From positions 1 to 64,000 of the forward strand of contig JAPETS010000058.1 of assembly GCA_026023565.1 (NCBI GenBank): a DNA stretch of 64,000 nucleotides, given 5' to 3'. Both the position numbers and the translations under genes were made by a program. Of the stretch, positions 17,286-47,500 are shown piece after piece; position 1 is the stretch's first letter, and each line of letters starts with the position of its first letter. The DNA comes from Cirrosporium novae-zelandiae (taxonomy: Eukaryota). The notes beneath the pieces are model-generated. The model saw only the letters and a program-made list of their open reading frames with translations, was not told the origin of the DNA and searched no databases.

Positions 17286-18349
17286 CCTTGCGATAGACTT
17301 GAGAGAACTCAAGAGTGTCACCTAGAATCCCAAAAACCTATCCAGACTTATTTGGACCTTGAAGCCGTTCTGAAGGGATGGTTAACCCACCAAGACAGGT
17401 CCACACTTACTCAGCTGTCTGGTAGCGTAACATGGGGCTCTGAACGCATAAAAAAAGAAAATGAAGCTTTGTAACATCATACTTGAATAGAATTCTGTTC
17501 AGTTTTCACCATTAGCAGCTCTCAAGTAAGCAAGTCATCATCCGTGCTCATGAACACTTATTGGCTTTGATGATGTGAATAGAGTTGACCTGATTTCTCA
17601 ATCCCACGTCTAACTCCAAACCACCATTTTAATGCCACTCCATGATCATGGGCTTACCCCGTCAGTCCTGATAATAATAGACAATTTCAAAGCGAATCCT
17701 GCTCCTAACCATCTCGCACTTGTATCTGGTCAAGTCGCCGATGAAAATGTAGTGAACAGAGCACTCAAAGGTCATTGCATCAGTTCCAGGGCTGAAATAG
17801 TGCAGGTTCGATGGATGTGCCTGATGAAGTCAGACAAGATTGATTACAGTAGTAAAGACTAAGAAAGGTTGAGTTCTTTAGAAGATGAAGGATCAAGTTT
17901 AAATTATTCCCCTGAGCCTGGAGCAACTATCATCCGCTTGCCCCAACTTGTCCAACTTGACCGACGTGCCGAGTATCTCGGAGTCGACGTTGCTCAGCCA
18001 ACAAAAATAGGGTTCAACCCCTAATAAGAGAAGAAAATTTCTGTCAAGTTCAACCTCTGGTTATAGCTAGCAGGTATTTTTTATTAGTGCTTACGTTGTT
18101 TCCACAGGTTCTTTGCTTCGAGTCATGTATATCCTTATACGCCCAGAAAGAAATTGAAAACAAGTCATTTGTTAAGATCATCCCAGGTCTATCGGAGTTG
18201 ATAATCTATGATCTAGAGATATGAATAATGGCTAGGGACATACTGGGTTTTCTGTAAGTGTCATTAAATAAGCTCTGGAGGTGGTGATATTTCTATTGGA
18301 ATTTTTATCTAAAGTCTAAATCATATCTCTTCATCATTCATCCTCAGTA

Positions 18350-20264: not shown

Positions 20265-20686
20265 TTTCAGAAAGCGAATAATGGCATTGACAGAGAATAA
20301 TTATCAGTTGATTTATGCGGTACCTGGCTAATTTTATATACTAAGAGGCCCAGTAGCCTATATAGAATAATTTCATTCCAGGATCCTGATGGAATGCATG
20401 CCATGTATGCAGATATCGCTGGCGGGTCACTCGGACTGCCTTATCTCTGCTTGAGGTTTCGTGCATCTGATCCAATGTACATAATTAGTAGTGTCCTGCA
20501 GTTGAGCCAGGGTAGCCATAGCGGCAACCCTTAGGCCACTTCCAGTTAGAATATAGATTTCAAATCTTTCATGTGAGCAAAAGTCCGTTGAACAGGTGGC
20601 ACTGGTGGCTCAGGATGTTGGGGGCATAGATCTGTGAGTTCTCGACTAGGCTAGCTTGGATCCAGGGTCTATTAATTAGGTCTTAC

Positions 20687-20697: not shown

Positions 20698-21410
20698 TCT
20701 TATAACCTTACCTTCTCCGCTCTTCCTCCTTAACAGACACCATCACCTACAATTAGTTACTCCATCTCTTCACAATGCACTATCCTCTAGGGTCGAGTCT
20801 AAATACAATAAAGTTGATTAAAGTGCACAATACATATGCGGCTGGAATTAGCCGACCCAAATTGCATTTTACAACAATTCTTTGCACTTGAACACCAGCC
20901 ACGGTGGCCACCTTGATGAAACGAGATCTTTCATCCAACTGCTTAGCTTGAGCGTCCTCCAAAGCCACTGATGAGTAGCACTTTGCAACTTGGCTAGGGC
21001 TCTGATCTCACGTGATGGACAACTAACCAATTCTGGGGCTCCGGCCTCTGTTAGGGGTTTCCCTGTTTCCAAAATATTCTAGCCTTGAATCCCAAAAATG
21101 GGGCTGAGAGATTGAAGAGGTAGATCAATGTTCTAAAACAAGCAAGTTGAAACTTGAAAGTTGGACGGTTGAAATGGGAGATCAGACGGATTTATTTTTG
21201 TCATGGCATAGACGTCAACTCAGCAGCAGGGAACCGTCTGCCCTGGAAATTACCCACAGACGTAAACGGTCTAATGGTCCGTACACAAAATCTACATATA
21301 TCTAGTGAGTTCGTCAAAATGACGTCTATATTCAGTATTCCTGATTTTGCACATTCTTTTGTGTTGTTTTATTCGTTCATTTTTTCTTCGATACATTCAT
21401 TATCCGAACC

Positions 21411-24400
21411 ATGTTCAATCTTGGTATTTTTTCTCAGAGCTCGACCCTTGCGGGACGAGGTCGTAATCATTACTACGTTCATATCGAAGATGAAGAAACC
21501 GAGACTGAGGGAGTTGATGAACATTTACCCCAACAGTCCCTTGACCTTTCAGGCTTCAGCTACAATCCTCTTCAACTATGGCTTACACCTCTCATGCGAC
21601 GGGTGAAGGCAGACAATTATTACGACGAAGCAGACCTTCCAAACTTTGGGAAGAATTCTCGTTACCTACGTTCTTTTGCTCGACCTTTATACCAAGGAAA
21701 TTATTTTGCTCTTCTTCTGACATCCGAGGTAGGGTGGCCTCTTGTAATATCGGGTATCCTTGAGGTAAGAGACTATACCAAATCCATTCGATGGCAATGT
21801 TGAAATTTCTCTAGTTTATATCCTCATGTTGTGCCTTGTCTGCACCACTTGTACTTCATGAAGTACTTTCTTCACCAAAGACCATTCATCTTGCTGTAAT
21901 TCTGTTTCTAGTTACCATATTCGCAACTTTGACTGGCCGTGCGAAGGACCAAATTTGCCGTGTTTTGGCGGCAAGACTATCTGCAATGCTTCAGTCTGCC
22001 ATTTTCGAAAAGAGTCTACGGCTCTCAAGTCCTGCACGAATGGATCACTCTGTTGGTAATATTATCAGCAGCTCTACCAATGATATGGTTTTCTTGCGAA
22101 ACTATTTTGTCAAGGTTCATGATATCTGGAGCGGTCCATTCCAATTAATTGTAATATTTTTCCTTGTGGTGAAGATCATGGGTCCATCAGGATTAGTTGG
22201 TGAGCAAGTATTTGATAGCTACTTTAATTATAACTGATCATTGCGTAGGCTTTTTTGTCATGATAACTCTGCTAGCCTCCCAAAACTTAGCAAACTCCAA
22301 AGTACAGGCTTTTATTCTAAGCTACTTGAATCTAGACGAGGAACGAATCACACAAATAACACAGACATTTCAGCGAATCAAAGGAATCAAGTCTCTTGCA
22401 CTCGAAGAGACGTTCTCGAGAAACATCAATAAGATACGCGAGAGCCAGCTACTTTCCTTGTGGCAGCAAATGCGACTGACTTTCTGCTTTTTTACATCCA
22501 TTAATCAGATGACTCCAGGTTTAGTAGCCATGGCCTCATTTACTACTTATTGGTATGCCGGAAATAAATTGACTGCAGAGGTTGTATTTCCTGCCTTTGC
22601 ATTCTTTGAGATGAGCTTCTCACCCGCTTCTAAACTGTCATTATCCATCACTCGTCAATTTGCTGTGCAGCCATGCCTTCGGCGAATTACGTCTATACTG
22701 AATGCCGAAGAAGACTTTACTGTACCAGTTCCTTGTCTATCCCCCCAAGATGCCGTGGTGTTGGATAGGGCCACATTTCGATATCCAAAATCCAAGGTTC
22801 AATCAGAGGCTGATTTCACGCTGGGCCCTCTAAATTTGCATCTTCCGCTAAATAAGCTTACTATGGTTGTAGGACCCAGTGGCTCTGGAAAGTCGACACT
22901 GTTAGCAGCTATTACCAGACAGTGTGTGGCAGATGCCAATTCGATCATACAGACTAGTGGCAGTATAGCTTTGTGTTCCCAGGAACCATGGATCATATCA
23001 GGAACGGTGCGCGAGAATATTCTCTTTCGGTCAACCCTCGATGAAAAGCGATATCGCCGTGTGCTCCATGATTGCTGTTTGGAGCAAGACCTTTTGACCT
23101 GGGAAGGGGGAGATGAGATGATGGTCGGAGACAATGGAGCGAATCTAAGTGGCGGACAGCGAGCACGCATATCTCTTGCTCGAGCCGTGTACAGCCAGGC
23201 CGACATTATCTTGATGGATGATCCCTTATCGGCAGTCGATAGCCGCATTGCAAAATGTCTCTTTCATGGATGTATTCGAAAGCTTCCTCAAACAGTCGTT
23301 CTAAGTAAGTGGAAGGCTAGGTTATTATAATTATTCTATGACTAACGGCATATAGTTACCCATCAGCTCTCTTTCCTCAAGCATGCAGATGTTGTTCTGG
23401 GACTTGATAATGGATCTCAAAGAGAATATGGTACCCCTAAAGACCTCTTGGATCTCGAACATGGCTTTTTGAGATCGATGGTATCCAAACAAGAGTCTAT
23501 TAACCCAGAGGAAAAGGATGACTTGGACACGGATAATACTCCAGGTGTAGACCCGGAGATTTCCTTGGGTTCTGCACGAAAACCCAAAGATGAAGAGCGC
23601 ATGAGAGGCAGTGCCGATACTCGGTTATATCGCTTTTACAGCGAATGCGCCGGAGGACGTTCTTTTTTGTTAATTTTATTATCCATCTTTCTGTTGACAA
23701 TATTAATTCGAACCATTAGTAGCATTTGGTTTACCTGGTGGATTGATGATGATTTACAGCTTGACCAAAATTGGTACATGGCAGGCTATGTATTGCTAAT
23801 TTTATTCCAGACTGCAGACGTTGGTAAGTTGGGTATATTGAATTTGTGTTATGTAGCTAACGATAACGCAGCATATCTTGGGTTGTTTCTTGTCAAGGGC
23901 AGTGTGCAAGCGAGCCGGAGAATCCATTATGAGGCCATGAGACGTCTTCTAGGTGCACGCATTGAATTCTTTGACAACCAGCCTCTTGGGCGTATCTTGA
24001 ACCGACTTTCCAACGATATTCAAGCTATTGACTTTCGATTGATGAACTCGGCCGACGCATTCTTCGTCTCAGGAAGTTCGCTTTTGGCAGCGACAGTGGT
24101 GCTCATGATTTCGTCACCATATCTGATACTTGCATTTATTCCAATCTTCTACTCGAGCTACCTCATCCAAGAGCTCTATCGCGCGTAAGTGTATGTCCAG
24201 GTTTCTCTTATCATCTATTGACATCTCCAGGTCCGCTCGTGAACTCCGGAGGTTGTGTTCAATTCTCGACTCTCCAGTTTTAGCCGTTGTAAGCGAGACA
24301 TTAAGTGCTGTGCCGTCTCTCAAGGCATATAAAGCAGAGTCTTTCTTCATGGATAAACACGAAAAAGCCTTGGATCGTGCCATGGCTTCAATGCTCGTCA

Positions 24401-25779
24401 GATATTCTTTGGAAACTTGGATAACCTTCCGAGCAGAGTTACTATCTGCCGCAGTGTTGGGATGCGTCGCCCTGTTGACCGTATGTGGTTTCGTGTCCAA
24501 AGAACAAGCTGGGTTGGCACTTGGGATGACAGTGACACTGTCAAAGTATGTTCACCTGTTTCTCTGGGCACTCATCAATGTGGAAGTAGAGATGAACTCG
24601 ATAGAGAGGCTGGAGCAATATATGGTGCATACTCCTACTGAAAGGGCTACTTCTTTTGAAGAGGTAGGACTTCCAGACAGTGTATGGCCCAGGAACGGTG
24701 ATATAGAATTCTCGGGCGTGGACCTCCAATATCCCGAAAGCGATAGAATTGCACTCAAGAATCTTAATTTGAAGATATTCGGTGGCCAACACATTGGAAT
24801 TGTTGGCAGAAGTGGTTTGTACCCTTTGTCCAACCATAAACGCGTATTTGCTGAGATGGCTCAATGCTGACATGACTAAATTCAGGATCCGGAAAATCCA
24901 CCATCGTCTCAGCCCTGACTCGTCTCACCGAAATCAAAAAAGGCTCCATCACAATCAGCGGAAAGAACATAAGCGATCTACCCATCCAACAACTCCGCCG
25001 CGGCGTCCACATCCTACCACAAGAGCCCGTCGTCTTTTCGGGGAGCCTTCGCAAGAATCTAGATCCCTACGATCAGTTTGACGATGCCTCACTCTGGGGT
25101 GTTCTCGACGCATGCGGTCTCTTTGATTTCTTTCGAAAACAAACCCCAACAACAACCCATCAAGACTCCCCCTCATCTACACCTCAAACCACCAACGCCA
25201 ACAGCTCTAACACTGATCTCCTAAATTTCCCCATCCACGCCGACGGCGGAAACCTATCCCGCGGACAGGTTCAATTAATCTGTCTAGCGCGAGCCATGCT
25301 CTTCCAACCAAAAATCTTAATCCTAGATGAAGGTTAGTTCCATCCCCATCCTCACCCCCACCCAAACTCCCTAAAAATAAAAATAACTCACTCACCCTCA
25401 TCATTATCATCATTTAGCAACCGCATCAATAGACCCCCAAACCGACTCCCTAATCCAAGAAACCCTCCAATCTCATTTCCCCATCGATACAACAATAATC
25501 TGTGTCGCCCACCGCATTTCCAGCGTGGCGTGGATGGACCGTATTGTTGTGATGGACTCCGGGGAGATGGTTGAGGAGGGGGATGTGCTTGACCTACTAC
25601 TGGCTGGCGAAGAAATGGATGGGAGCGGGGAGAAGAAGGTTGGTGGTAATGGTGGATACTACAAAGATCTGGTCATGCAATCGGGTGGAAGGGATCTGTG
25701 GGAGGCTATGGCGTTGGTGGCTAGGGAGAGAAGATTCGGTAGCGTTGGAGATTTGGAAAAAGGGAAGGGAAAGCAATGA
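21411..25779 (+). CDS. ABCC/MRP (YOR1-like) ABC transporter, TMD-NBD-TMD-NBD, about 8 exons
   Basis: Lasso-like WLTPLM. NBD1 has GPSGSGKST, LSGGQRAR and IILMDD. TMD2 has FFDNQPLGRILNR and MNSIERL. NBD2 has GRSG^SGKST, NLSRGQ and ILILDE^ATAS, with AHR at the H-switch. Confidence 0.92.
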
Positions 25780-27691: not shown

Positions 27692-28915
27692 TCACACCCC
27701 AAAAGTCTTCATAGCACCCAACATACTCTCCCTCCAACCCTTCACCGCATCTCCCCTCTCCCCTCTCGGACAAACCTCCACAATCGCCCTCAAGAAATTC
27801 GCAACTATCTGCATCTGCTCCTGCTCTTTGGATGTGTATTGCATATCAGCTAATAACCCCTGAGCATCCACTCCCCTCTCCCCACACCTCTCCTCAAACC
27901 TCGCAAACATATCCGCCTTCTCCACCAACGAATCCTCCTCATCATCCTGCTGCGCATTCCACAGAAACGCACGCGTCGGATTCCATCGCGGGAACGGCAC
28001 CACCCCCGCAAATTCCCAATCCAGAATTGCTGTTATCTTGGCTGTGGAAGGGTCCACGAGGATATTTGCGTAGTGGAGGTCCTTGTGGGCGAGGCGGAGG
28101 GGGGTTTTGTTCAAGGTGGATGCGGAGGCCGGGAGGGCGGTTAGGAAGGCTTCGAGCTTGGGTAGGGTGTCTCGCATGTGTTCTAGAGTCGGGTGGATGG
28201 AGATGGCGTGCATGTACTTGCGGATGTGTGCGGTGATGTAGTCGATGTAGGTGTTGAAGGGGCCGGAGATGTTTAGGGTTGAGAAGGTCTCTGTGGCTGG
28301 CCAGTGCTTTTCGATGTCTGGGAGGAACCAGAAGGTTTCTTCGAGCACGGGGCCGGGGATTATTTTTTCGGTATTGTTTTGGGTTTGGTTTGGAGGAGAG
28401 AATTGTAGGCCGCCGATTTGTGTCCATTCTTTCTTGTGTAGCTGGAGGAGGATGTCGATCACTTGCTCGATAATCGAATCCATTTGCTCGTCACTAAAGG
28501 ACCGAAATACGTCCGCCAAGCTCTGTCCCGGACATCGCGTAAACAAGATATACTCCCTGCCCAGCGGGTTATCAGTCATGGCGTCATAGCTCACGAGATC
28601 TGGGACCGGGATGGAGGTGTTCTCGCGCACCCATGAGAGCACGGCAGCCTCATTTTCGGTTTTTATTTTTGCAATGTGGTCGCCGGAGATGCGGAGGATT
28701 AGGTCGGTGGAGGGGCCCGGTGGTGTTGGCGCCGAGGGGGGTAGCTTTGGGATGATGGTTGTGGTGGGGTAGGTGATGACGTAGATGAGGTGGAAGGCGG
28801 CGGTTACTTTGAGGGGTTTGATGCTGGTGGGTGGGGGGAGGGAGAGGGAGGTGAGGAGGGAGAGAATGGTTTCGTCGCTGAAGGGGAGGGGGAGGTGGTC
28901 TGCTGGGGATCCCAT
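27692..28915 (-). CDS. APH/choline-kinase-family phosphotransferase (kinase-like fold), 407 aa, single exon
   Basis: LILRI, ENEAAVL..V...TSIPVP, Brenner motif HKDLHYANIL and metal-binding ILDWEFA. Confidence 0.85.
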   Translation of the reverse strand: MGSPADHLPLPFSDETILSLLTSLSLPPPTSIKPLKVTAAFHLIYVITYPTTTIIPKLPPSAPTPPGPSTDLILRISGDHIAKIKTENEAAVLSWVRENTSIPVPDLVSYDAMTDNPLGREYILFTRCPGQSLADVFRSFSDEQMDSIIEQVIDILLQLHKKEWTQIGGLQFSPPNQTQNNTEKIIPGPVLEETFWFLPDIEKHWPATETFSTLNISGPFNTYIDYITAHIRKYMHAISIHPTLEHMRDTLPKLEAFLTALPASASTLNKTPLRLAHKDLHYANILVDPSTAKITAILDWEFAGVVPFPRWNPTRAFLWNAQQDDEEDSLVEKADMFARFEERCGERGVDAQGLLADMQYTSKEQEQMQIVANFLRAIVEVCPRGERGDAVKGWRESMLGAMKTFGV

Positions 28916-29496: not shown

Positions 29497-30477
29497 TTAA
29501 GCTTTCGACATCTTGCTGGTACTGCCCATAGCACGATTCGCGAGCAAACTCTCTTTGATAGCCCCAGTAACCTGTAAATCCCAGCCATTCCGGTCGAGAT
29601 GGTCCATGGCTCGACGTGTGCTTCCTCCAGGGACGCAGACATCATTCTTAAGCTCAAGTAGAGATTTGTCCATGGTCTCCTGGGCAAGAACGCCGGATCC
29701 AATGCATGACTGTATTACTAGATCACGAGCGAGTTCTTCGGGTAGGCCGAGTTCTGTGGCGGAGTTGATCATGGTATCCATGAGATGATAGAAGTAGGCA
29801 GGCCCGGAACTGAAAAGATGTTAGCTACTTTGGATTGGGAGTTGGTATAGAGCGTGATAGGAAACATACCCAGATACGGATGCCACGACGTCTAATAGAG
29901 ACTCTTGGGATAAAATGACAACACTTGGAGATATAGACTTGAAGATCTCCATAACGCTCTTCAATTGAAATCTCCTCACAAGATTGCATGGATAAAGGCC
30001 TGTTGCACCTTGCCGAACCATTACTGGTGTATTGGGCATAGATCTCACAATTGGCACATTGCTTGGCAGCCACGCCTTCATCTGGTTCACAGTGATACCA
30101 GGACAGAGCGTCAATATCACAGGACGTGTCGGCCTTTCAGCAATGACATTATAGATTTCGGCACACACAGACGGTATATCAGCCGGCTTGGTGGAGATCA
30201 TCACAACATGTAGGTCATCGTCTATGTCAGTCGCAGCACTCCAAATGCGAGGATCGGTGTTGTTAGTCGTCACAGCGACATTATGGAAGGAGGCTTTCAA
30301 CCGTTGAGCATGTTCCTGACGGCGAGCAGTGACAACAATATCTTTGAATTGAAGCTGGGATGGTCTTTTCTCAAGTAATCCCGCCAGTATCCCTTGACCC
30401 AATGTCCCACAACCAATTATTGTTACCCGTAGACGGGTGGTTTCGAGGATTTCTGGTTGTTCGTTGCTGAGCACCAT
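29497..30477 (-). CDS. Pyrroline-5-carboxylate reductase paralog (ProC/PRO3 family), 306 aa, intron 29869-29810
   Basis: Rossmann motif IIGCGTLG, RSMPNTP, SG^SGPAYF across the intron, and VCVPGGST. Confidence 0.92.
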
Positions 30478-31433
30478 GATGTCTTGCTTAGATGTTCAGT
30501 CTGGACAGGACTGCTAAAGGAATCGAATAAGAAGCTAATGTGTATAGTAATTAATAATGGTTATTCAGGCTCATTATGGAGTACATATTGGGAACATGAA
30601 TCAGCTAATAAGGCAAGTCCTCAATGCTAGAGGTCACATTATCAAGCATTGATGGGGTTAGATGCCTACTGGCTTCAAGGATTGAATATGGAGGGCTTAT
30701 GCGGGGTCAACAGCCCTCTATTGCTTGAAAGGAGAAGGTAGGATTCGACGAGATTGACTATGTTGATGATGACGATCAGGATGGACTGTAACACGTTCAT
30801 ATTTTCAGTGATCTCGTAGGATTCTTTAGTTGCAACTTTCTTGCAGACTTTAGACTTCAGGGAATTTAGCTTCTTCTACGACTTGTCCAAAAGCCCCACA
30901 AACCCCGGAGCTTGTTTAGACTCCCAAACTTTGTCCTGAAGCTTGTCGTTCCGCCCCCATTGCATGTACGGTGAGCTGCTGGTCCTTTACCGAAGTCATA
31001 GTTTATGCAATTTAACCTCATAGGATCCCAATGTCCTAAGTTCTGGCCTATTAACCTGTCAGCACTATCCATCGAAGGAGTTCAACTACTGCACCATGCG
31101 ATAGAATAATCAAGCAAATCTACTATTTCTGTTACATTACCATAGCAAACCAGATTGACCAACTTGGTCACCGCTTCTTCTATTCTCAGAGTAGGCCTTT
31201 GACCTGGCCTGATACTGGCATGGCATGGACATCTGCATCCCTTACACATGGAGGTCTCCGAGATCACACTGTAATTGCCTCTGAGCTGATGGAAAGACCC
31301 CGGTTTGACTGTTTGGTCAACATGGTGGCAGGGTACATGTCTAGGTAGATCTAAAGTTGGATCAAGTAAGATTTGTGAGGTAGATACAACTTCAACGTCG
31401 ACTCGAACTCGAAAGCCATACTCTGTTTCTTGA

Positions 31434-32594
31434 ATGGCCATCGTCTCTGCTTCAATGGATATCAAAACTGTGGATTTCATCGGGTTCAAGGATGGTTCTG
31501 CCAGCCAGCGCCAGGTGATTGGCGAAGCTGTAACTGAAGCCTTTCGAAAGAATGGCTTTCTCAAATTGACCAATCATGGTATTTCTAGAAAGACCCTTGA
31601 TGGGCTGTTCAATTGGGTAATTTTTTCCTTCCAAATCCTTACTGTCCAATTTTCACTGTACTTGGCCATTATTGACACTCTTCTCGGGATGTAGAGCGAA
31701 AAGTTCTTCAGCCTCCCTGTCGAGGTAAAGCAAAAGGCTCCTCACCCATCGTCCCCAACACCAAATCGAGGATATAGTGCGGTTGGAATGGAGAATACAT
31801 CTATTCATGGACTCGCTGGAAAGGGGGTGGAAGATGAAAAAAATATACTTGTGGATATGAAGGTCTGTTAGGCATTAAAAAATCTGAGTGCGTTCAAGGA
31901 ATATCTGTCAAGAAGAAACTAAACTGTGGTATAGGAATGTTTTGATCAAGGTGCTGTTGATGATGAGCTCTACCAGAACATCTGGCTTCCAGAATCAGAC
32001 CTACCGGGTTTTCGTGCGTTCATGGAATCATATTTTGATATCTGCTTCGCAGTCCAGCTCCAGATTATGCAAGCTCTTGCTATAGGGCTAGGGCTCCCCG
32101 AGGACACATTCGATAAACTCCACGATAGACATGAGAATGAGCTTCGGTTGACTCATTATCCTGAGATTGAAGCTGGTGAACTCCTTGAGGGAAGCAAGAC
32201 GCGCATATCTGAACACACGGATTTTGGAACTATCACCTTATTATTTCAAGACTCTGTTGGGGGTCTAGAGGTTGAATGTCCAGATAAGCCGGGACATTTC
32301 GAGCCTATCGAGTCAGATAAGGTGGAGATGATTGCAAATATTGGTGATTGCCTCCAGCGCTGGACCAATGATCAATTACACTCAACCCGGCATCGTGTCC
32401 ACATTTCTCAGCGTGACCTCAAGGCAGGGACGAAGATTCTGCCCTCTCGATACTCGATTGCCTTCTTTGCCAAACCCAATCGAAAAAGCTCGTTGCAGCC
32501 ATTTGCAGAGCTTGTAGAGCCAGGGCAAGAACCGAAATATGGCAATATGACAGCAGGGGAATTCATTATACAAAGATCATCTACAACATATTAG
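31434..32594 (+). CDS. Fe(II)/2-oxoglutarate dioxygenase of the IPNS/DIOX_N type, 336 aa, introns 31617-31694 and 31863-31934
   Basis: GFLKLTNHGI, KFFSLP..K, NRGYS, LRLTHYP, facial triad HTD...HRV and 2OG-binding RYS. The spliced CDS is 1011 nt and in frame. Confidence 0.92.
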
Positions 32595-33866: not shown

Positions 33867-34917
33867 TCAAGACCAAAAAATCAACCTCGGCTTAGCCCCC
33901 GAAGTCTCGGGAGGAAGCAAGCCCATGAAGCTACTGAGAGTCAATCTAGGCCGGCGCCATTCGACCGCCCCCCCCAATTCCGGGTGCGGCTCCACCTCCA
34001 CAGGGAAAACCTGATGCATATTCCTGCTATTAAAAAAACACAAGTCTCCGGGACTGGGGTGGATGGTGCAGTTGTTCCTGCCCTGCACGATCTCCGGGGA
34101 ATAGCCGTAGGAGCTGGGATCGCGGAAGTCGAGGGATTCCTCGGTCCACTGAACGTCGTGGACCACGGTGCGGCCTCCCTTGACTGGGGAGAGGTAGAGG
34201 TTGAAGACGGCTTGGCGGGTGATTTTGTTGATGAGCCAGTCTTCGGTGAGGGAGTCGTAGGGGGACCAGTCGCAGTGGATCGGGGTGGATTCGTTGATGG
34301 CGCGGAAGATGCCGGAGAAGTATTTTTTGGAGGGGCCTTCGTTCGCGACTATGACTTCGTACTCGGGCACTAGGGAGGCGATCTTGGCCATAATCAAAGC
34401 CCAGACGTTTGTTCCCGTTTTTGCTGCTAGGTCTGAGTGGAGCGTTTCCAGCTTTCGCACTTCGTTAAAGTAGCGTTCTTTTTCTGGACATTTGGGTAGC
34501 AAGTCGTTAGCATGTGTCCTGGTTTAGTGGGATGGGCAAAGGAACAAGGTGTAAAATAATACCATCTGATCTCTTTTGGAAATCTTCCGCCGATTGTGCC
34601 TGGAACTCAAACTGCGCGATGCCGACTTTGAATAGGTCTGGTCCTGCAACATGAAGGTAGGGTGACAGCTTGGGGCTCAGTTCTTCCTCGTACTTGTGCG
34701 CCAGTTCTTTATTGATGAAGCCCCGTTCGCAAATCACTGGCGTTCGGCCTTCGAGAACGTCGAGGAAGGCTTCGCGCGTGAGGGGCACATCGTCTAGTGT
34801 CTTCCAGGTGGACTCGTGCGCTGGTAGGGTCTTTCCGACGCCTTTGAAGTGGAGGTAGGATTCGTGGTAGACGTTGGAGTTAGAGGAGGTGATCTGCTGG
34901 TGAACTGTGGTTGCCAT
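33867..34917 (-). CDS. Second, unrelated Fe(II)/2OG oxygenase (putative proline/amino-acid hydroxylase), 323 aa, intron 34562-34484
   Basis: YFSGIFRAIN, IHCDW (HxD), GDLCFFNSRNMHQV (distal His) and RLTLSSF. The spliced CDS is 972 nt and in frame. Confidence 0.75.
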
Positions 34918-35264
34918 GTTGGAAAAAAAATAAAATAATTGAGAATGTAGAACAAGTTTTTGCGGGATGGGTTTGTTCAATTGAATACACGATTATATTT
35001 ATATCTCCCCTCAGCTCCGAGTAATCGAGATAGGATGATGATGCCAATGATGATGCCAGTAGTGAAAGTAGTGGGAATTGTGAAGCTATATGAACATGTA
35101 AGAAATGTAACGCTTGATATCGATTTAGTCTACCTGCAAGTCCGTAAGCTATGGATCCCTGGTCGCAACTTTATGATAAACTATATGGCCTGACTGCTTT
35201 TAAAAAAGTGAAGCAAATAAGCAAAACGGCCGTCCCGATGGTCGTACCAGCCTTTCCTAAAATC

Positions 35265-35272
35265 TCACACCG
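35265..35272 (-). promoter_or_regulatory. Candidate cluster cis-element CGGTGTGA in the oxygenase/NRPS divergent promoter
   Basis: TCACACCG on the plus strand, about 240 bp upstream of the NRPS ATG. Confidence 0.3.
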
Positions 35273-35514
35273 ATAGGAGGAGGGTAGCATAAGGATCTTA
35301 TAATTTCCAAAGGATCCTTCCAGAAGCTTGGATTATTCGAGACCCTGAAACACGGTAGCTTGGCTCTATATAGCTGGTCTTAGATAGTTATTTTGAACTT
35401 GGATAAAAAAATTTTGAAGAAGAAATGTACTCAACTTGAACCTCTTTTTACTCCTCTACCCTTCTATAATCACAATTCTTTGCCCTGCAATATTATATTC
35501 GCCCCCCCCCCATC

Positions 35515-38500
35515 ATGTTTCCTCATAAGAGCTCATCTACAAGAGATGAGACAATCATTTCAATCTTGGACAATGTCATGAACACCAACCCCAATGGTGT
35601 TGCTGTTGATTACGAGAGGGGATCACAGCTCACCTATGCCGATCTACGTCATCAAGTTGACATCCTTTCTCGGTCGTTGAGGCCGAATATCAAAGCTGGT
35701 CAATTGGTATTTGTCCTACTCCCTCGATCCTTTGCTCAAATCGTGAGCATTGTATCCATTATCCAGCTTGGTGCTGTCTATGTCCCTTTCGACATTGAAA
35801 TCCCCCAAGCGAGGCTCGAAGCTTTACTTCGAAGAGTGAAGCCCCCATTAATTCTCACAACCACTACCAATGCAGAGCGACTTAATTCTTGGGGATTCAG
35901 TGACTGTCACTGCGTCGATCCCAACTTGTGCCTGCAACAACCTCTAAACGAAACCGGGCATATAGAGCCCATTAATGTCAAACCTAATGATCTGGCCGTT
36001 GTCTTGTTCACGTCTGGAAGCACGGGGGAGCCAAAAGGCGTACAGCTATCCCACAAAAATCTTATCGAGCCTATCCGGTATCTTAGCAAGGCACAAAAAA
36101 TCACAAAGTCTGCTCGTATTGTTCAATTTGCGGGCTGCGCTTTTGATGTGCATCTTCTAGATATCTTTTGCGCTCTCTTCAACGGATCGACTCTTTGCCA
36201 GGTCTCGAAAGACAATCTCCTTTCACGACTGGCTTTCTGGATTAATCAGATGGAGGCAGATATGATACATCTGACTCCAAGTGTCCTGTCGATATTGAAT
36301 CCACAGGAAGTGCCGCTGCTGAAGTATATGCTTTCAAGTGGCGAGACAATTACGAAACAAATAATTGAAAAATGGGCACCACGTGTGACCCTAACAAATC
36401 TCTACGGTATGCTTTCCGATTTCAAAGTAGTGATGGCAAAGGATGCTAAAGTCTTTTAGGACCGTGTGAGGCCTCTTCAATTGTAGGCTCCCAATTAAGT
36501 CCGGGAACAGACCCTAGTGTCATTGGAGAGGCAACTCCGCACGCAAATCTCATACTACTTGACGAGCATGGAAATGCCGTACCGCAAGGGTCAGCAGGTG
36601 AGATTTACTGCTCGGGAGAAAGTGTCTTTCTGGGCTACCTGGGTAATAAAGCAGCCACGGCCTCCAAGTTTAAACTTGTAGGCCCCGAGATGTCATCATT
36701 TTTTGGAACGGGTGACTTGGCTTCTATGACGCCAGAAGGGAAGATTCAGCTGTTGGGTCGAATAGATTCTCAGGTATGTTTTTATCTGAGCATATCGCGT
36801 TCTTAGGCTCCTATATCCTAGAGAGTGGAGCAGTAGGCCTTTACTAACGGAATTCAACGACAAAGGTCAAAGTCAATGGACAACGAGTGGAACCTCTTGA
36901 AGTTGAACACGTTCTTTTATCTCATTGTGCCAAAGCTGTTGTAAAGGCACGAAAAGATGCGAATGGACAAGTGCGGCTCCATTCATTTGTGACGAAATCG
37001 CACAACTTCTGTGGACCTTCGGATCCCTGCCTAATCCTTGAAGACGAGGAGAGCTTTGTACAAAAGTTAGATGAGGTATGTCAGTCTTCTTTGCCCAGTT
37101 TTATGCTTCCCCAAATTATAGTGGTAAGTGCAATTCCCCTTAATGCGAGTGACAAAATTGACAACAGGCGACTGGATGATATATTTATGAAATTAATGGA
37201 TTCTGAAACGGATCCGACTTCACAAATGACTTCTCTTGAACTTCAGGTGGCTCGAATCATTGAGCGTCGGATATTTCATAAGATAGCATCCGTAGACCAT
37301 CATCTACTGTCATTGGGTCTTTCATCTCTTGATGCAATGGTTGTGATTAAGGAAATTGAGGAAACTTGTGCAGTGTCACTCCGGTTAAGTGACGTCATCC
37401 GAAATCCGACCATTAGATGCTTGAGTCGGATGGTGGAACAACAACAACAACACCAACGAGCAGGAAACCCAGTGTCAATAGCAAAGAAAAAACCACCCAA
37501 CAACTTTACTACAGCTCTGGAAAATCATCCACTACCCGAGAAGAGCTCAGACTTCCAAAGCTATCCGTACTTTGTGACCACTTCCACGGCTCAGGATCGG
37601 ATCTATGCTGCACAAAAATTATTAAATAACAGTGCATATAATTGCAATTTCGTTCTGAATATAGACAATTTTGAATTAGATCTATCAAAATTATTCGCTG
37701 TTGTTCGCTTTGTTTGTGGTAGACATGAGACGTTACAGTCAACTTACCATGACTATGATGACTCCATCTCCGGTAACAGTGATGCCAGCGACTACCCAAC
37801 CCCTCCACTGGCTATCCAGAAAGTTCACGACATTGAGAACTTGCAACCCGAGTTTGAGAGTTCTAGTCTTGTGGAATTATCAGACATCTCCACATCGAGT
37901 GAGTCAGGTGTCTATGATGTGGCGATGTCGATGATCAAGGACAAGGCTAGGCGGCTTTTCGACCTAGAAAAGGACTCTCCAATCCGAGTGGGAGTTTATC
38001 AGGTCGGGAACTCACATTTCATAGTTCATTTCAATATTCATCACATCTCAATGGATGAATGGTCATTTGGAAAGTTGTGTGAAGAGATTGAACTTGCTTA
38101 CAATGGATCATCCAGAGATAAATCTCAGTTCGGCGACCTCAGCACGAGACCTGTCCAATACAGCGAGTTCGCAAGATGGAGTAGAAATGCCTCCACAGGA
38201 ACAGTACGCCAAGAAAACTTGGAATGGTGGAAAGAGAATATTGGAGGAGATTATGCTTACCTTCGTCCTGCTGAAATCTCTCCAGTTACAGTGGACCGCC
38301 AAACTCAAGAGATGTTTCAAGACAATAGTCGAATATTTGTTCATGCTGCCAACCCGGATCATGTAAGCAAATTTCAGACCCAGATATGTAACTCCACGCC
38401 ATTCATAGGATGGCTTAGTCTTGCTCAAACTATCTTGGGACGTATATCCAGAAAACAGAAATTCCTCCTCGGCGTTCCTGCTACAGAGCGAGGCGAGAAA

Positions 38501-41500
38501 GCCACATTCCAGAATGTCATTGGTTTTTGTCTGAACACGCTGCCATTCCCTGTCACTCTTGATGAGTCCGAGACCTTTGAAATGCTTATGAACAAGACCC
38601 ACCAAACATTCTTCGATTGCATGGCCCATTCAAGCTCGTATGAAGAGATCATAAATCACCTCGGGGATAGTCGTGATAGCGGCCGTGGTGGTCTAGCAAT
38701 GTCAGTAATGTTCATATACCATGACATGCGGCGACAGGATAACGATACTACCGCGCCTTCTGCATTTTTGCGCGATGCCAATCCAATTCAGTTGACTGAA
38801 ACGGGTGCTGAATTCCCTTTGATCATTCATTTTGACCCCAATCAGTCGAACCCTCGCCTACTCCTACAATATCGCGCGGACACATTTTCGGAAGATTTCA
38901 TTGGTGGCATCGGCCGCGCATTCGACGTTATCCTTGGAGATGTCATTTCAAAGAGTTCCACGGAGCCAATATGTCAGCTAAATATTGTCTCTAAATACGA
39001 TATGCAAAGACTTGATGATTGGTCTGCAACGACCGAATTTTCATCTCAGATGCGTGAAACTTGGATTAATGGGAAAGGTACCAATCTTGTTGAACTTTTC
39101 AAACGTGCTGCATATAAATTTAGTGATGCGGTTGCATGCGAGAGCATTAACGGAGAGAGTCTGTCTTACATGATGCTATATCGAAAGGCTTCTGCACTTG
39201 CAAAGGTATTGCAGAAACGCCACTTGGGAAAATCGCGAGTCGGTATTGTCGCCATGGATAAATGCCCTGCGCTTGTTGTCTCGGTTCTTGCGGTTCTAAT
39301 GACGGGGGCAGCCTTTGTCATGGTAGATCCTACTCATAAAACTGTGCTGAACCAGAACAAAATCGAGGTTACTGATGCCAGCCTGGTCATTGTTAATGAT
39401 GACAGCACTTATACAATCAACGACTGGAAACTCGATAGCAAAATCGACATTGTGAATGTTACGTCGCTTGATCTCACGTCCGACACCACAGAAGAGTTGG
39501 AAATATCTTTAGACAGGTCCGATAGTGCTTATTTGTGCTTTACCTCTGGTTCCACCGGAAATCCAAAGTGTTTCGCAATTCCTCATAGTTCAGCGGCTGC
39601 CGCCATCATGGGATCTATTGAGGTGTTTGGCCTCCGCCCTGGGCTGAGATGTGGATTTCTATGCAACGTCACTTTCGATGTTGCTGTGTCTAATATTTTC
39701 ACTACTCTTATTTCTGGTGCTACTATGTGCATAGCTCCAACGGATTCACTTCTGACCTCTTTGGATGGCACCCTGAATACCTTGTCCGTCAATTATATTG
39801 AGACAACACCAAGTGTTGTGGCTACCCTGTCAGGACCCTCTCAGGTACCTTCTCTTCGAAAGATTACCCTCATTGGCGAACCCCCTTCGTTGAAAGTGTT
39901 TCAGACATGGGTTGACCATGTAGAGATATATAATTCTTATGGGCCTGCAGAGACAACAATCACTAGCCACGCACACAAGTATAGTTCTGATGATGACCCA
40001 CGAACAGTCACTCGAAATGTTGGCAAAATGTTTCCAGCAATTCGATCTCTTATACATGATGCTCAAGGGAGACCACTCCTACCTGGAACTATAGGCTATC
40101 ATATGATTGGGGAGCAAGTAAGTGGTAAATTCAGCCAGCTTAGCTCGGGTTATATTGCCCCAATATCTGCGAATAAGAGATTCCAACAACATAATGAATA
40201 TGGAAGGTTCTTCAACACTGGCGATCTCGCATTCTTTGATTTTGACGGAAATGTCAATATCATTGGTAGGGAGGATGACCAAGTCAAATTACACGGTATT
40301 CGATTTGATCTTGGTGACATTGAAAGTGCGATTGACTCTCTCCTGGATAAAGGCAGTAAGACCACTGCCGTCATTTGTAAACTTGTTCAAACTGGAGCAT
40401 CCGTTCTGGTTGCATTTTTGCAGCATCCTATTTGGGCAGATGGACCCAGACAGGCCGCTTGGCAGAAAAATGTCCAACCTGAAGACAATAAGCTGTTATG
40501 TTCTCTTCGGGACAAGGTTGAAGTGGTCTTGCATGATGTCATGATCCCCCGTTACTGGATACCAATCTGTTGGGTACCTAGAAGCAATACTGGAAAGGCT
40601 AATCGTGCCCTTCTTAAAGAGTGGTTCTCTGAGATTCAAGACCAGGACCCGGAAAGATTTAGGGCTTATGCTACACTGCAAAACCAGGAAACAAACAGTT
40701 CTATTCATGGAAGTTCTCTTCTCCAGGATCCATTAGGGCAGAAGGTGGTGCAATGCTGGAAGGAAACCCTGGGGCTTTCTGAGTCTGAGATCAACCCTGA
40801 AGCTTCGTTCTTTCACTGCGGAGGTGACAGTATTACTGCAATTCGATTCTGTTCCAAAATGAGGTCACAGAATGTGACCGGGTGTTCTGTATCTCAGTTG
40901 TATGAGACCCCTTCGATCTCTCGGCTTGTTGATGCTCTTCGTTCTCGACAATCCCTTGAAGATTCTCCGGAGACCTCAAAAACGGTTGACTCCACAGTTG
41001 AATATCCACTTCTCGGGTCGCGTCGGGACTATTCAGTTCTCTGCGAGCATATCAAGACCAGCCTGGCTGAACTTGCTATGGATAAAAGTTGCGTTATGAA
41101 TGTTCTTCCTTTACTATCAATGCAACATGTCATGCTCTTACAATCAATGGAAAACCCAGAGCTATATGTAACGCAAGTCATCTACACATTCGCTGGCTCT
41201 TTCGATATTCTTCGGTTTGAAAGTGCATGGAAAGCTGTTGTGAGGGCTCACCCGTCCCTCCGAACTACTTTCATGTCAATCCTTACGACCGATATCCTTG
41301 AAATACTTGCAGTAGAGACAAATGGCTCCGATCATGATAATAGCAGTATGAGCGTTTTGCCACTGCCAACTAGCGACAAGTTTGAGAGCACTCTGCGACA
41401 AGATCGTCTTAAAGGTTTCAAGCTCGGAGGCCCCATGCAACGAATGGCGGTATTTAAAGAAGCAGATGAGCTTCATCATGCCGTTCTAACGATACATCAT

Positions 41501-44500
41501 GCAATCACTGACGGATGGTCCTTTAATATTATCCTACATGAACTCTCAAAAGCGTATCAAGGAAATGAGCTATTCAACGGGCCATCTCCTTCTGAATTTC
41601 TGGCTTTTGATATGGGGCGCGACAAGTCAGAGGCAAAGAAGTATTGGCAACATATGATGGCAGACTTTGATCCATACTCATTCAGCTCTAGCGATGCGAA
41701 AGCTATTAGATCAAATGATATAACACCATCTACATTACGAATGAATGTGAAGACTCTTCATTCTGATGTGGTTTCCCAGTATGCTCGATCTGTTGGCGTC
41801 ACTCCGGCCACTATCTTTCAGGCCGCAATGGCCATTCTTCTCTCAAGAGCTACGAACAGAAAGGATGTCGCTTTTGGAGTTACAGTTAGTGGACGAACAT
41901 CTCCAGTAAATGGACTTGCTGACACGGTTGGCCTTTTCATGAATACCGTCCCTTTGAGGTTATCTGTTGAGGCCTGTGAGGATGTAAACAAATGGCTCCC
42001 GGATATTTCTAGAATCTTTTCAGCCGGCATGTTATATGATTATGTTTCCATTTCCGAAATCTTTTCCGACCATGCCTCGCATGGAAAGCTATTTGACTCG
42101 ATATTGGTATATGAGAATTACGCCACAGACACCCAAGATTTATTTGGGGAGAATCTCGCATTACAAAAGATTGATGGAAGAGAATTTTCAGATGTGCCTT
42201 TTATGATAGTAGTTGAGCATGTACTATCTGGCACAGACATTACCTTCAAATGGAACTCGTCGCTCCTCACAACACAGCAAGCATCCTCATGGCAGCTTCA
42301 GTATGCATCAATCGTAGAGGATATAATTTCTGATCAATCATTGCCATTGACAGTTGCCAATATAGGCCAGAAAAAACCATACGCCGAGTTACAACAATCG
42401 GTTACGGCCTACGAAAACTTGAAGCAATGCTCCAAAAATGTCGACTCTAGCGATACTCTAATATCACTCTTCAAGAACACCGTCTTAAAGAGTCCGGATA
42501 GTACAGCACTGGAAACACCAACAGGAAGCATGACATACAAAACCTTAGATCATGAGTCAGACGTTGTTGCTATGAAGCTACTAGAGTACGGGGTCAGTCA
42601 AGATGACATTATTCCAATTATTTTCTCTAGATCAACCGATATGATCGTGGCAATGCTGGGTGTCATGAAAGCTGGTGCATCATATTGCCCAGTAGATGTT
42701 CACACGCCAACTATGCGCCAGTTATTGTTGATCAGGAAAGTCGAGGCGAAATTTGTGCTCGGACAGGTTGATCACATGAGTGGCCTCTCAGCCATGCAGG
42801 ATTTGGTCTCCTTGAGCTTCCGGTTGCTCTTTTTTGACGACTTGCTTGAGGAGAGCATTGAAAATCTCGAACAACCTCTTCCGAAGATATCACATAACCA
42901 AACTTGCTATGTACTCTTTACTTCTGGGTCGTCAGGACAGCCCAAAGGATGCATTCTAAGTCACAGAGCTGTAGTAAACGTGGTTAAAGAGACCTGCAAA
43001 GTTTACCACACAGATTCATTTTCACGGGTATTGCTTTTTGCCAATTACATTTTTGATGCTTCAGTTGTTGATATATATGGTTGTCTCTCCACCGGAGCTT
43101 CGCTATGCATCGCTGATAGCGAAGATGTGATGGGTGATCTAGAGGGAATGGTGAACAGAATGCGCATCACCTCACTCCATCTCACTCCGAGCGTCATCAA
43201 GCTCCTCGAGCCAGATCGATGCACCTCCTTGAAAACATTGATATCTGGTGGCGAAAAATTGCCTCTTGCTGTTCGTGATACGTGGGCAAGCCGGGTTAGG
43301 TTAATTGATGGCTATGGACCTAGCGAGACAGCAGTTCAGGTTTCGGCAACGCTAGTTGAACCATCAAACCCTACCTCCGTCATTCCTCAACCTTTACCTG
43401 GGAACTTTCTTATTGTCTTGGATAGTCATCTCAATATTGCCCGAGTAGGGCAGGTCGGTGAAATATTCATTGGCGGTGTCCAGCTTTTCGAGGGCTATGT
43501 CGGCGACCCAGCGCTCACCTTGAAGGCTTACATATCTTCTCCCTTCGATACAGGGTCTCGATTATATCGTACTGGGGATTTAGGGCGATTTACTGAGGGG
43601 ATGGCAATCCAGATCCTTGGACGAAAAGATAGCCAGATCAAGTTTTCCGGCCAGCGAATCGAGGTCGAAGAGATTGAAAGCATTCTCAATTCGGCTCCAA
43701 CTGTCGCTCGCTCTGCTGTTGCCGTCTATGAAAGTCAACTTTGTGCTATCGTGCAAGCCAAATCGTCTAAGTCAACCTGTTCGATTGAGAGCTTGAGCTC
43801 GTTTTGTGCAAACCGACTACCTACTCTACTGGTTCCAACTAAGATTATTTTGGCAGAGGTTCCTTTAACTGCTAGCAAAAAGATCAACCGAAGACAGGTT
43901 CATGAAGATTTATCCACTAGGAAAGCTGAAAATAACAAAAAGAAGTCCTTGGACTCGCCATCTCTAACACCGGAAGAGGAATTCATTAGTTCCGTGGTTG
44001 AGAAAATACTTGGACGCCCAGTGACGGATGTCAATCTGGCTTTCCCATACATTGGCCTGAACTCTCTAAGCTTGATGCAACTGAGAGGGGTACTAGCCAG
44101 AAAGTACAGTGAGCCTTTGACATATTCACAACTCAGCAGAGCAGGTAACATCCGGAAGCTAGCAACCATGTTGAAATCAGCAAGGACGTCAGATATCACT
44201 ACTAGAAAAATCAAAGAGCAGCCAGTTACTGGTTCCTTTCCAGCACTGCCTATGCAGTCCCGGATGTGGATGGCACAAGAGAGGCTGCAGGACGATACGT
44301 ACAATGTCTTTAGTCTAGCTGAAATCGAGGATGTCAATTCCGAACGACTTTTGGAAGCATTAAAGAGTCTTGTGGAAAAAGTTGATATTTTCAAGATAAC
44401 GTTCTCCTGGAGCGACAAGGACAATTTGCTATATCAAAACTTACATGACTTACCACGAGCTCGCATCTTTATGAGGGATGTAAGTCACTTGGATAAGCCC

Positions 44501-47500
44501 TTTGAAGAGATTCAATCCCAATGTATTCTGGACAACAAACTGGTGTTTGACCTCCACAAAGGACCCCTTGCGCATTTCACAATCTACAACTGTGGGTTTG
44601 GAAAATGCTTCCTTTATTACAATATTCACCATATTCTTGTCGATGAATGGACTTGTCAACAGATTCTGGCCTCGCTGTCTAGAATCTATTACGATGATCG
44701 ATGTGATATTCGCTTTATTTCGGTCACTAATGCAGCGCAATCTTTCCAATCGTTATTCACAGAGGAACAGGCGGCAGGCCGTGTAGCCAAATTCGTGGCG
44801 ATGTTGGAAGATATTCCAGTATTGGATACTAAAGATTGGCCGGAGCCGTCAGTTGACTGCATTGATCGACAAACGCATACTGTCTCCCGCAAACTACCGC
44901 GAGCTAAGATTTCCTCTTTTATGAATACTTGTCTTACCGCAGGTATATCGCAATTTTCATCTTTTCTGTCACTCTTCCAACTGGTAATGCATCGGTAAGT
45001 TCAATCACGGAACGATATTAGTCCTTATCCTCGAAGTTCAAAGATTCCAAGAGCATGGATTTGCGCTAACGTGAGTAGGTACACTGCTGCAAATGATTTA
45101 TCGGTTCTTATACCTATTTCCACTCGAGGTAGTGATCCAGAAATGGCAGAGGCTCTTGGGAACTTTACCAACACTGTCCTGGTCCGATCTAATCTGCAGA
45201 AGGATGATGCGATCAAAGACTTTCTCAGAAGAACAGCAGATTTCGTTGATTTCGCCATGGATAACTCATTGGCTCCCCTGGAAGAGATTCTCTCTTATCT
45301 ACACTCTTCTGTGTCTGAGCATTCCGTAATGTTCGTCTTTAATGAATCGTTGGCACAACCGTTCAAGACCATGCGCGACCAATCTTCAAAAATTTCCATT
45401 GAACAAACAGCAATGTTTGATATTTGCTTCAATATCACAGGCCAGTTAGAGGATGTGTCGATTGAATTGCAATACAATACTGGCAAATTTGACTCGCGCT
45501 TTATGGAAGGTCTTGTTGAGTGTTACCTGAATCTGATCACGAGTTTGGACTCTCAAATAGACCACAAGGTACAAAGTTTGAACTTCTGCTCACCTACTCA
45601 TACTTCGTTAATTGATCGACTCTCAAACCTTGAAAGTGTGAAAGAGCCAGTTTCAGATTGCCTCCTCCATGAAATATTTGAGCGCCAAGCACAGGATACC
45701 CCCGATCGTATTGCAATCGATTTCTTGGATCGTGGGCAGATTCATGGCACAACATATAAGGAGCTCAATGAACGCGTAGGTTCCCCAGTTCCCCCGCCCA
45801 CAAATGTACTGACACTTTCTAGGCATCCGAAATTTCGGCAGTTTTAAAAACAAACTACGACGTTCAATTTGGTGATATCATACCGATATATGCCGACCAA
45901 GGCCCGGAATTTGTGGCAGCTTTATTGGGTATACTGAAGTCTGGAGCTGTATATACGCCTCTACCTAGGGACAGTACATCCTTAGCGAGAGCTGTCAGCA
46001 TAACCCAGAAATGTAACGCAAAAGTGGTCATTGCTGATGTGTTCACTATTGATGGCCTCGAAGTGTCAATTTTGAACGTCAACAAGCTTCCACAAATTTC
46101 ATCGGGAAGTGTAACGCCAACTAGCGTGACATCATCGCAAATTTCCTCAGATTTCTTTTCACAAAGAGTGGTAAGTGATAGCATCGCTTACATAATATGG
46201 ACTTCCGGAACCACTGGCATCCCAAAAGGAGTTCAAGTTACTCATGCTGCGGCTGTAACAGCTTTCTATGTTACAGCGAATGAAGTCTATGGTGGAATCC
46301 AAGATCGTGTTTTGCAGTTCTCAAGTCCGATGTTTGATGTATCACTCGAAGACATCTTCACTGCATTTGCAAGAGGAGGCACAATATGCACGGCGCGAAG
46401 TCATGATTTACTCTACAATATAGAGACTGTCATTTCTGCTTTGAAACCTACAGCTGCTGGTCTGACGAACTCAGTGATATCTCTCCTCGATCCAAAAACA
46501 ACACCCTTGAGGATACTTGTCGCAGGTGGAGAGCCTCTCTCTGGAAAAGTCAAACAAGCATGGATTGGCTCTTCAACTCGCCTCATCAACGGCTATGGCC
46601 CAGCAGAAAACACAGTCCTTTCGTAAGTGGATTTTCTCTAGACTTTCATTTCCAATGCTAATTTCTATAGTACATATTCCGAAGTTCAAGATTCTACCAG
46701 TATCTTGTCAATTGGGAGACCTATTTCTTCGGTCACCGCTTTTATCTTAGATTTATTTGAGAATCTCAGCCTGCCATATGTCAGAGGGGAAATTTTCCTC
46801 GGTGGCTCGCAGCTATTTGATGGCTACTTTTGCGAGCCTCAACTCTCTGAGAAAGTATTAATTCGACATCCCCGATATGGTACACTCTATTCAACGGGAG
46901 ATATAGCATACTACGATAATGACGGCAACATTAATATATCTGGTAGAGCAGACGATCAAGTCAAGATTCACGGACAGAGAATTGAACTTGGTGGTATTGC
47001 TTTTATGATTGAACAGCAAGCTAATGTGAAACGAGCAATCGTAGTCAAACATGCTGAACAGCTTGCTGCATTTATCACATGGACCGAGAATCATAAGACT
47101 ACTTCTATGGATGATTTTGCAATTCTAGATATCAAGGAGCCGAGAGTACGAGAACTGGTAGACTTCCTTACAACTAAACTCTCGTCTTCGACGGTGCCTG
47201 TGGTCTGGGTAGAAATTAACTCGGTACCCATGACGTTGAGCGGAAAGATTGATAAATCTCGCCTCAAATCAATGTTAGGCAATATTCGCACATCTACAAC
47301 TGACGAGTGGGTTCCGCCAGAGGGTGACGTCGAGCAGTCTTTGCATGACTGTCTCTGTCAGACTCTCAATATGGACTCGGTCAGCGTGCTAGCAAACGTT
47401 TTTGAGCTCGGAATGGATTCATTCCTGGCAATGGGTTTCATCTCCCGAATCCGCAAAGTCCTCCCACAATTTTCGGTGAATTCCCGCGACGTTGCCGAAT

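Follow-up and report, generated by a model that had tools for sequence, protein, structure and literature searches.

Known cassettes and the locus

Two ways of providing cyclic imino acids to peptide synthetases are already established: methylproline cassettes made of an oxygenase and a pyrroline-5-carboxylate reductase (P5CR), and P5CRs located inside clusters that supply pipecolate. UcsF/UcsG (UCS1025A), DetxE and EcdK/GloC all have a DIOX_N/2-oxoglutarate (2OG) oxygenase encoded near a nonribosomal peptide synthetase (NRPS), in the case of UcsF together with a reductase. DetxE oxidizes isoleucine in the destruxin/isaridin pathway and housekeeping P5CRs reduce its product, UcsG being uncharacterized as of 2021 (PMC8233208); the echinocandin reductase is likewise not encoded in its cluster, and proline hydroxylation in that pathway is carried out by GloF/HtyE (PMC7778625). 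In Nostoc, LdoA, NosE and NosF convert leucine into 4-methylproline, the first step being leucine 5-hydroxylation by LdoA (PMC5676206). Regarding pipecolate, Apf3 serves apicidin F and deletion of Kk1I leaves less than 10% of KK-1 (PMC10512319), and both pipecolate and 4-hydroxypipecolate occur in MBJ-0110, whose NRPS gene adjoins that of a 2OG oxygenase (PMC13036780). Here we describe a 64,000-nucleotide stretch of the fungus Cirrosporium novae-zelandiae (contig JAPETS010000058.1, positions 1 to 64,000, hereafter the window), in which a P5CR, a DIOX_N oxygenase (ox1) and a WelO5-fold oxygenase (ox2) probably form a three-gene cassette supplying a modified cyclic imino acid to an adjacent six-module NRPS.

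A preliminary description of the window, made from its sequence alone, had recognized a head-to-head pair of a P5CR and an IPNS-type 2OG oxygenase and proposed that it delivers methylproline to the NRPS. The pair is real, with divergent start codons 956 bp apart and complete spliced models (Table 1), and the catalytic motifs are intact as stated, including the Rossmann and loop motifs of the P5CR and the iron and 2OG ligands of ox1. The cassette had however been drawn without ox2, and the pipecolate precedent (Apf3, Kk1I) had also been overlooked.

Compared with the UcsF, DetxE and EcdK systems, the locus has an additional oxygenase, ox2, and its reductase gene lies within the cluster, unlike in the DetxE and EcdK pathways. 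It resembles the LdoA-NosE-NosF cassette of nostopeptolide in having an ox2-family oxygenase and a P5CR beside peptide synthetase genes, but differs by its fungal host, the absence of a nosE ortholog from our matches and the added DIOX_N oxygenase; the P5CRs of the Nostoc cassettes are 21–25% identical to the cluster P5CR and the Nostoc relatives of ox2 are 27–31% identical to it over ~290 columns. As with Apf3, Kk1I and the mbj cluster, a P5CR or 2OG oxygenase encoded among fungal NRPS cluster genes would provide a cyclic imino acid. We rejected the possibility that this is the MBJ-0110 cluster itself: MbjA has five modules and no epimerase, with no P5CR mentioned, whereas the present NRPS has six modules, an epimerase (E) domain and a thioesterase (TE). 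The cassette would work like the known methylproline and pipecolate cassettes. What is new is the combination of an uncharacterized P5CR clade, an uncharacterized DIOX_N clade and a fungal oxygenase of the cyanobacterial-cassette family, beside an intact TE-terminated fungal NRPS. In the literature searched, which left most subscription journals outside coverage, we found neither an account of this cluster nor one of any LdoA-family enzyme in fungi, and nothing relevant on fungal WelO5-like hydroxylases.

A cluster-specific P5C reductase

The P5CR matches the Pfam families F420_oxidored (PF03807) and P5CR_dimer (PF14748), both over cut-off, and scores 181.6 bits against TIGR00112, slightly below the cut-off of 196.75. 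It has the same length as the database protein P0151, with an identical first exon, and carries the Rossmann motif GCGTLG together with RSMPNTP and SGSGPAY. The genome contains three P5CR_dimer matches, the cluster copy and two others (L001 and L002), L001 behaving as the housekeeping copy (TIGR00112, 232 bits); the separate PRO3 anticipated by the preliminary description is thus present, and the cluster gene is not the only one. The cluster P5CR shares 21% and 25% identity with the other two and 31–35% with nine bacterial ProC matches. A search with it returned 29 proteins, 19 of them in its clade, with named members from Penicillium, Trichoderma, Parastagonospora, Aspergillus section Flavi and Gaeumannomyces. 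In a tree of 27 sequences the cluster P5CR and its fungal relatives formed one clade with a support of 1.0, the Flavi and Trichoderma sequences standing apart from the remaining members. As judged from these comparisons, the P5CR belongs to a separate fungal clade that resembles bacterial ProC more closely than it does the PRO3 of fungi, and it is a third, cluster-specific copy because two other P5CRs exist in the genome. The latter, together with the low identity to them, rules out that it is the housekeeping PRO3.

L002 (G000:C74:536649-536954) is a PRO3-like P5CR, 40% identical to L001, near transcription-factor-like and P450-like open reading frames (ORFs); no NRPS or polyketide synthase ORF was seen in the ~20 kb of surroundings inspected by eye.

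Ser233 and Thr238 of PYCR1 are carboxylate-binding residues (PMC7560826; PMC12899673). When this loop was mapped by motif, every full-length clade member examined was found to keep the Thr but to have Val in place of the Ser, which suggests a reshaped pocket without naming its substrate. This change is one of the points in favor of a pipecolate route, a possible but doubtful alternative in which the P5CR would make L-pipecolate from lysine-derived piperideine-6-carboxylate, ox1 would hydroxylate pipecolate or proline, and ox2 would separately hydroxylate a branched-chain residue for another module. The in-cluster P5CRs with genetic support, Apf3 and Kk1I, supply pipecolate (PMC10512319), and the poorer performance of E. 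coli ProC with pipecolate than with proline (PMC12899673) would favor a dedicated copy; yet no protein named Apf3, Aps3 or Kk1I, nor UcsG or PRO3, occurred among the 29 P5CR matches, a result limited to these words as most entries are unnamed.

The preliminary description had also considered that the P5CR simply raises the supply of proline or serves self-resistance as a target copy. The oxygenases would then act on unrelated residues or on the finished peptide; we regard this reading as quite improbable. In its favor, the P5CR clade is paired with different oxygenases in different fungi, and the Ser to Val change could confer resistance to an inhibitor. Such a copy would however be expected to derive from the host PRO3, to which the cluster P5CR is less similar than to bacterial ProC, and every traceable neighborhood has the P5CR gene beside that of an amino-acid-type oxygenase.

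Ox1 forms its own clade among DIOX_N oxygenases

Ox1 contains the Pfam domains DIOX_N and 2OG-FeII_Oxy. Its database version, P0001, takes the second Met as start (329 aa) and, in that numbering, the iron and 2OG ligands are H204, D206, H263, R282 and S284, in His-x-Asp...His and Arg-x-Ser motifs. The label IPNS-type holds at the family level only: full-length ox1 finds its best PDB matches in thymine dioxygenase, at 202 bits, and in UcsF, at 186 bits, and exon 3 alone reaches ~47 bits against IPNS. Despite the top score, ox1 was rejected as a thymine 7-hydroxylase (T7H) because the locus L006 carries the T7H-type motifs and a Lys of ox1 replaces the T7H Asn; Lys290 of ox1 is also found in BuaE, PpzD and UcsF, and not in thymine hydroxylase.

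In a FastTree tree of 51 of the 106 sequences, which did not include UcsF, DetxE, EcdK or GloC, ox1 grouped with its orthologs in Penicillium and in section Nigri of Aspergillus (58–62% identity, support 0.996), outside the clades of BuaE, PpzD, EmeC and the L016 ORF. On this basis ox1 is assigned to a clade of its own inside the T7H/UcsF/BuaE/PpzD family. Its identity is 44% to BuaE, 42% to PpzD, 47% to the L016 ORF and ~37% to UcsF (counted by eye). BuaE is annotated at its source as 'Proline hydroxylase buaE'; PpzD we take to be a proline hydroxylase, and the L016 ORF is presumably the Fusarium pipecolate 4-hydroxylase FoPip4H. With GloF/HtyE, these presumed or annotated hydroxylases resemble ox1 in identity (42–47%) and iron-proximal motif, whereas the ox1 clade is separate from the BuaE/PpzD group and has a different lid loop and C-terminus.

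These comparisons bear on the pipecolate route. Ox1 shares Asn78 and Asn88 with the L016 clade in addition to the 47% identity, but lies outside that clade, whose link to pipecolate is our assumption. The MBJ-0110 NRPS, whose peptides contain pipecolate and 4-hydroxypipecolate and whose gene neighbors that of a 2OG oxygenase (PMC13036780), provides a precedent for such a role.

They also bear on the original view of ox1 as a Leu/Ile oxidase of the UcsF/EcdK type, which would doubly oxidize Ile or Leu to a methyl-pyrroline-5-carboxylate for the P5CR to reduce, ox2 doing something else. Against UcsF, ox1 scores 186 bits, BuaE 174, L016 172 and the section Flavi oxygenase 147. Ox1 therefore has no special affinity to UcsF, since BuaE and L016 score nearly as high, even though UcsF is its second-best PDB match. 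The iron-proximal residues Ser202, Glu203, Thr205, Phe207 and Phe288 are as in PpzD and EmeC, whereas the corresponding residues of UcsF are Trp, Pro, Phe, Leu and Leu (0/5 in common). As many family members have the residues seen in ox1, these would count against a UcsF-type pocket and are no proof of proline hydroxylation. Conversely, a lid loop (Thr, then Ser-x-His-Gly) is common to the ox1 clade and UcsF and was absent from all other family members for which the loop could be extracted, which was the case for most but not all of the 106 sequences. The proven Ile oxidase DetxE is itself 42% identical to UcsF (PMC8233208), so that ~37% between ox1 and UcsF is compatible with an Ile oxidase, and a doubly oxidizing enzyme would need no NosE. 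No protein named UcsF, EcdK, GloC or DetxE was present among the best 120 of 442 ox1 matches. As BuaE and PpzD are closer relatives of ox1 than UcsF is, we consider this role unlikely, and ox2 a better candidate for the first oxidation.

Ox2 belongs to a WelO5-fold family found in cyanobacterial cassettes

Ox2 is present in a single copy in the genome. A profile of 40 ox2 relatives matched WelO5 (E 2e-16), and the predicted structure (pLDDT 90.6) had WelO5 as top Foldseek match (TM ~0.64). The iron site of the family is His-x-Asp, with His188 and Asp190 invariant in the alignment; a WelO5-type halogenase was rejected, as the WelO5 halogenases have His-x-Gly at this site. The model of the isoleucine dioxygenase HilA gave weak matches, far under cut-off, in 17 of the 40 family members.

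A scan of prokaryotic genomes for ox2 relatives led to the recovery of 39 loci. Within ~4 kb of the 26 cyanobacterial ones, a P5CR was found in 21, a Zn-dehydrogenase in 19 and an ABC transporter in 15, while the 13 non-cyanobacterial loci had neither a P5CR (0/13) nor a Zn-dehydrogenase (0/13) within that distance. When 81 Nostoc-genus genomes were compared by eye, the ox2-family oxygenase and the nosE-type dehydrogenase occurred in the same 27, always at most 3 kb apart, and neither was found in the other 54. The nosE-nosF arrangement matches these cyanobacterial loci (PMC4946873, PMC7660261); no mention of the Nostoc oxygenase as LdoA was found in PMC7660261 or PMC7503407.

In 9 of the 26 cyanobacterial loci (for example L031:343-4762, L036, L038 and L052), two ox2-family paralogs, ~39% identical, flank the dehydrogenase and P5CR genes. 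The second paralog may make another modification, such as hydroxyproline.

Linkage of the cassette genes in other fungi

Linkage in other fungi was deduced from accession numbers and equal contig sizes. In Gaeumannomyces, an ox2 homolog (RB595_003618) adjoins a P5CR homolog of the same clade as the cluster P5CR (RB595_003619), an adjacency that the pipecolate route leaves without explanation. In Penicillium cinerascens the P5CR (KAJ5190382) and the ox1 ortholog (KAJ5190384) are two accessions apart; in P. waksmanii the P5CR and ox2 homologs are on equal-sized contigs, as are the ox1 ortholog and the ox2 sister (support 0.94) of A. ellipticus (89,661).

The A. flavus P5CR and oxygenase are P0207 and P0225 (G4B84_010023 and G4B84_010021), and the Flavi-type DIOX_N clade also has Penicillium and Trichoderma members. 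This section Flavi locus is possibly an mbj-like pipecolate cluster. No support was found for WYK-1/imizoquin as its identity, and the table of the AO090038000390 cluster has no P5CR entry.

A proposed route to methylproline

From the gene models, folds, families and co-location established here we infer all substrates, the order of the steps and the module assignment in what follows. Ox2 would hydroxylate L-Leu (or Ile) at its terminal methyl group, and a second oxidation, by ox2 again, ox1 or a general dehydrogenase, would give an aldehyde that cyclizes to methyl-pyrroline-5-carboxylate. The dedicated P5CR would reduce the latter to methylproline, and ox1, if it does not complete the oxidation, would most likely be a ring hydroxylase like GloF/HtyE of the echinocandins. 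The product would be loaded by one NRPS module, probably A6, after the epimerizing module 5, and the terminal thioesterase would release or cyclize the hexapeptide. We give this scheme, with ox2 as the Leu oxidase, the P5CR as the methyl-pyrroline reductase and ox1 either as ring hydroxylase or as the enzyme completing the oxidation, a probability of roughly 0.4; methylproline as the product, whether ox2 or ox1 initiates its formation, appears reasonably probable. The methylproline supply of the preliminary description thus stays plausible, given a cluster-specific P5CR whose clade lies beside amino-acid-type oxygenases in other fungi, but ox1 is unlikely to be its UcsF/EcdK-type Leu/Ile oxidase.

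A number of observations weigh against the scheme. Regarding ox2, its identity to the Nostoc relatives is only 27–31% and it did not group with either Nostoc paralog in the tree; it has itself no match to the HilA model; and its homologs are widespread in fungi, chytrids included (best 120 of 126 matches), so that many may serve a general role. The prokaryotic scan relied on a single short pattern, the Nostoc co-occurrence reflects one inherited cassette and not independent events, and LdoA is presumed to belong to the ox2 family from its neighborhood and not from its accession (ACC80786). A nosE ortholog was not found in the genome, where the best full-length match was 28% and none lay on the cluster contig. 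As for linkage, no section Nigri P5CR of the cluster clade was present among the 29 P5CR matches. In eight species of Aspergillus section Flavi a different DIOX_N oxygenase lies two or three accessions away from the P5CR, and neither these species nor Trichoderma contributed an ox2 homolog to the best 120 of 126 ox2 matches. Housekeeping P5CRs are enough for methylproline in destruxin/isaridin (PMC8233208), and the echinocandin reductase is likewise outside its cluster (PMC7778625). Finally, the GC content at third codon positions (GC3) is 0.64–0.71 in ox2 and 0.43–0.48 in the P5CR, ox1 and most of the NRPS. The transporter also falls in the lower range, and the kinase and the TE exon side with ox2 (0.62–0.71 for the three), a split which counts against a common origin.

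Tentatively, fungi may possess a second 4-methylproline route, independent of EcdK/UcsF, in which an LdoA-family WelO5-fold leucine 5-hydroxylase acts with the bacterial-like P5CR clade, and a DIOX_N oxygenase replaces NosE or adds a ring hydroxyl. If true, this would be the first function assigned to an uncharacterized but widespread family of fungal oxygenases, would feed an undescribed thioesterase-released hexapeptide, and could account for methylproline in fungi whose clusters are without known genes, such as Purpureocillium lilacinum. This leucinostatin producer has an ox2 homolog (P0453, 54%); the leucinostatin cluster is reported to have no nosE or nosF homologs, the source of its methylproline being left open (PMC4946873). 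The three enzymes are small and soluble, functions for them would cover three orphan clades, and they may yield new biocatalysts that make substituted prolines or pipecolates by C-H oxidation.

The chytrid ox2 homologs P0230, P0238 and P0488 branch beside the ascomycete clade, which suggests that the ox2 family is old in fungi.

The adjacent NRPS

The NRPS has a single uninterrupted frame after removal of nine GT-AG introns, and the architecture A-T-C-A-T-C-A-T-C-A-T-C-A-T-E-C-A-T-TE, with six adenylation (A), six thiolation (T) and five condensation (C) domains. The epimerase of module 5 matched TIGR01720 under cut-off. Codes of the A domains were extracted by motif; we take A2 to be ornithine-like and A6 proline-like, giving little weight to either. 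We could match the predicted hexapeptide to no known compound.

The synthetase, although fungal, closes with a thioesterase instead of a terminal condensation domain. GC3 rises from ~0.42 to 0.55–0.62 in the TE part, hinting that the TE may be of separate origin.

Gene layout and cluster context

A Pfam search was performed on 36 open frames of the window (the genome is 31.4 Mb and intron-bearing). It shows an ABC transporter, an APH-like kinase, the P5CR, two 2OG oxygenases and the long NRPS; beyond the latter lie genes of FMO-like, bicarbonate-transporter and ETF type.

Table 1. Features of the cluster and its surroundings in the window.
Feature	Position	Strand	Details
Acyltransferase-3 gene and transporter-like membrane ORFs	15690-20300		Upstream of the ABC transporter; Pfam (acyltransferase-3)
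ABC transporter	21345..25779 (approximate limits)	+	Possible exporter with two ATPase and two membrane domains; Pfam
APH/choline-kinase-like phosphotransferase	27692..28915	-	Between transporter and P5CR; possible cluster member; Pfam
P5CR (pyrroline-5-carboxylate reductase)	29497..30477	-	306 aa; exons 30477-29870 and 29809-29497; GT-AG intron 29810-29869 (60 nt)
P5CR-ox1 divergent intergenic region	30478..31433	.	956 bp; presumed bidirectional promoter, from layout
ox1, DIOX_N/2OG-FeII oxygenase	31434..32594	+	336 aa; exons 31434-31616, 31695-31862 and 31935-32594
ox1 introns	31617-31694, 31863-31934	+	78 nt and 72 nt; gene model
ox2, WelO5-fold 2OG/Fe oxygenase	33867..34917	-	323 aa; His-x-Asp (hydroxylase type); intron 34484-34562
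ox2-NRPS divergent intergenic region	34918..35514	.	597 bp; layout
NRPS	35515..56318	+	6747 aa; nine introns, uninterrupted; Pfam, gene model

The P5CR and ox1 are presumed to share a bidirectional promoter, and no common motif of at least 10 nt was found between their intergenic region and that of ox2 and the NRPS. A metagenome scan with ox1 returned 5 short loci, none with cluster context. The APH-like phosphotransferase gene lies inside the cluster span, its match to the guanitoxin kinase model being weak and far under cut-off. The acyltransferase-3 gene and the membrane ORFs upstream of the transporter may also be cluster members.

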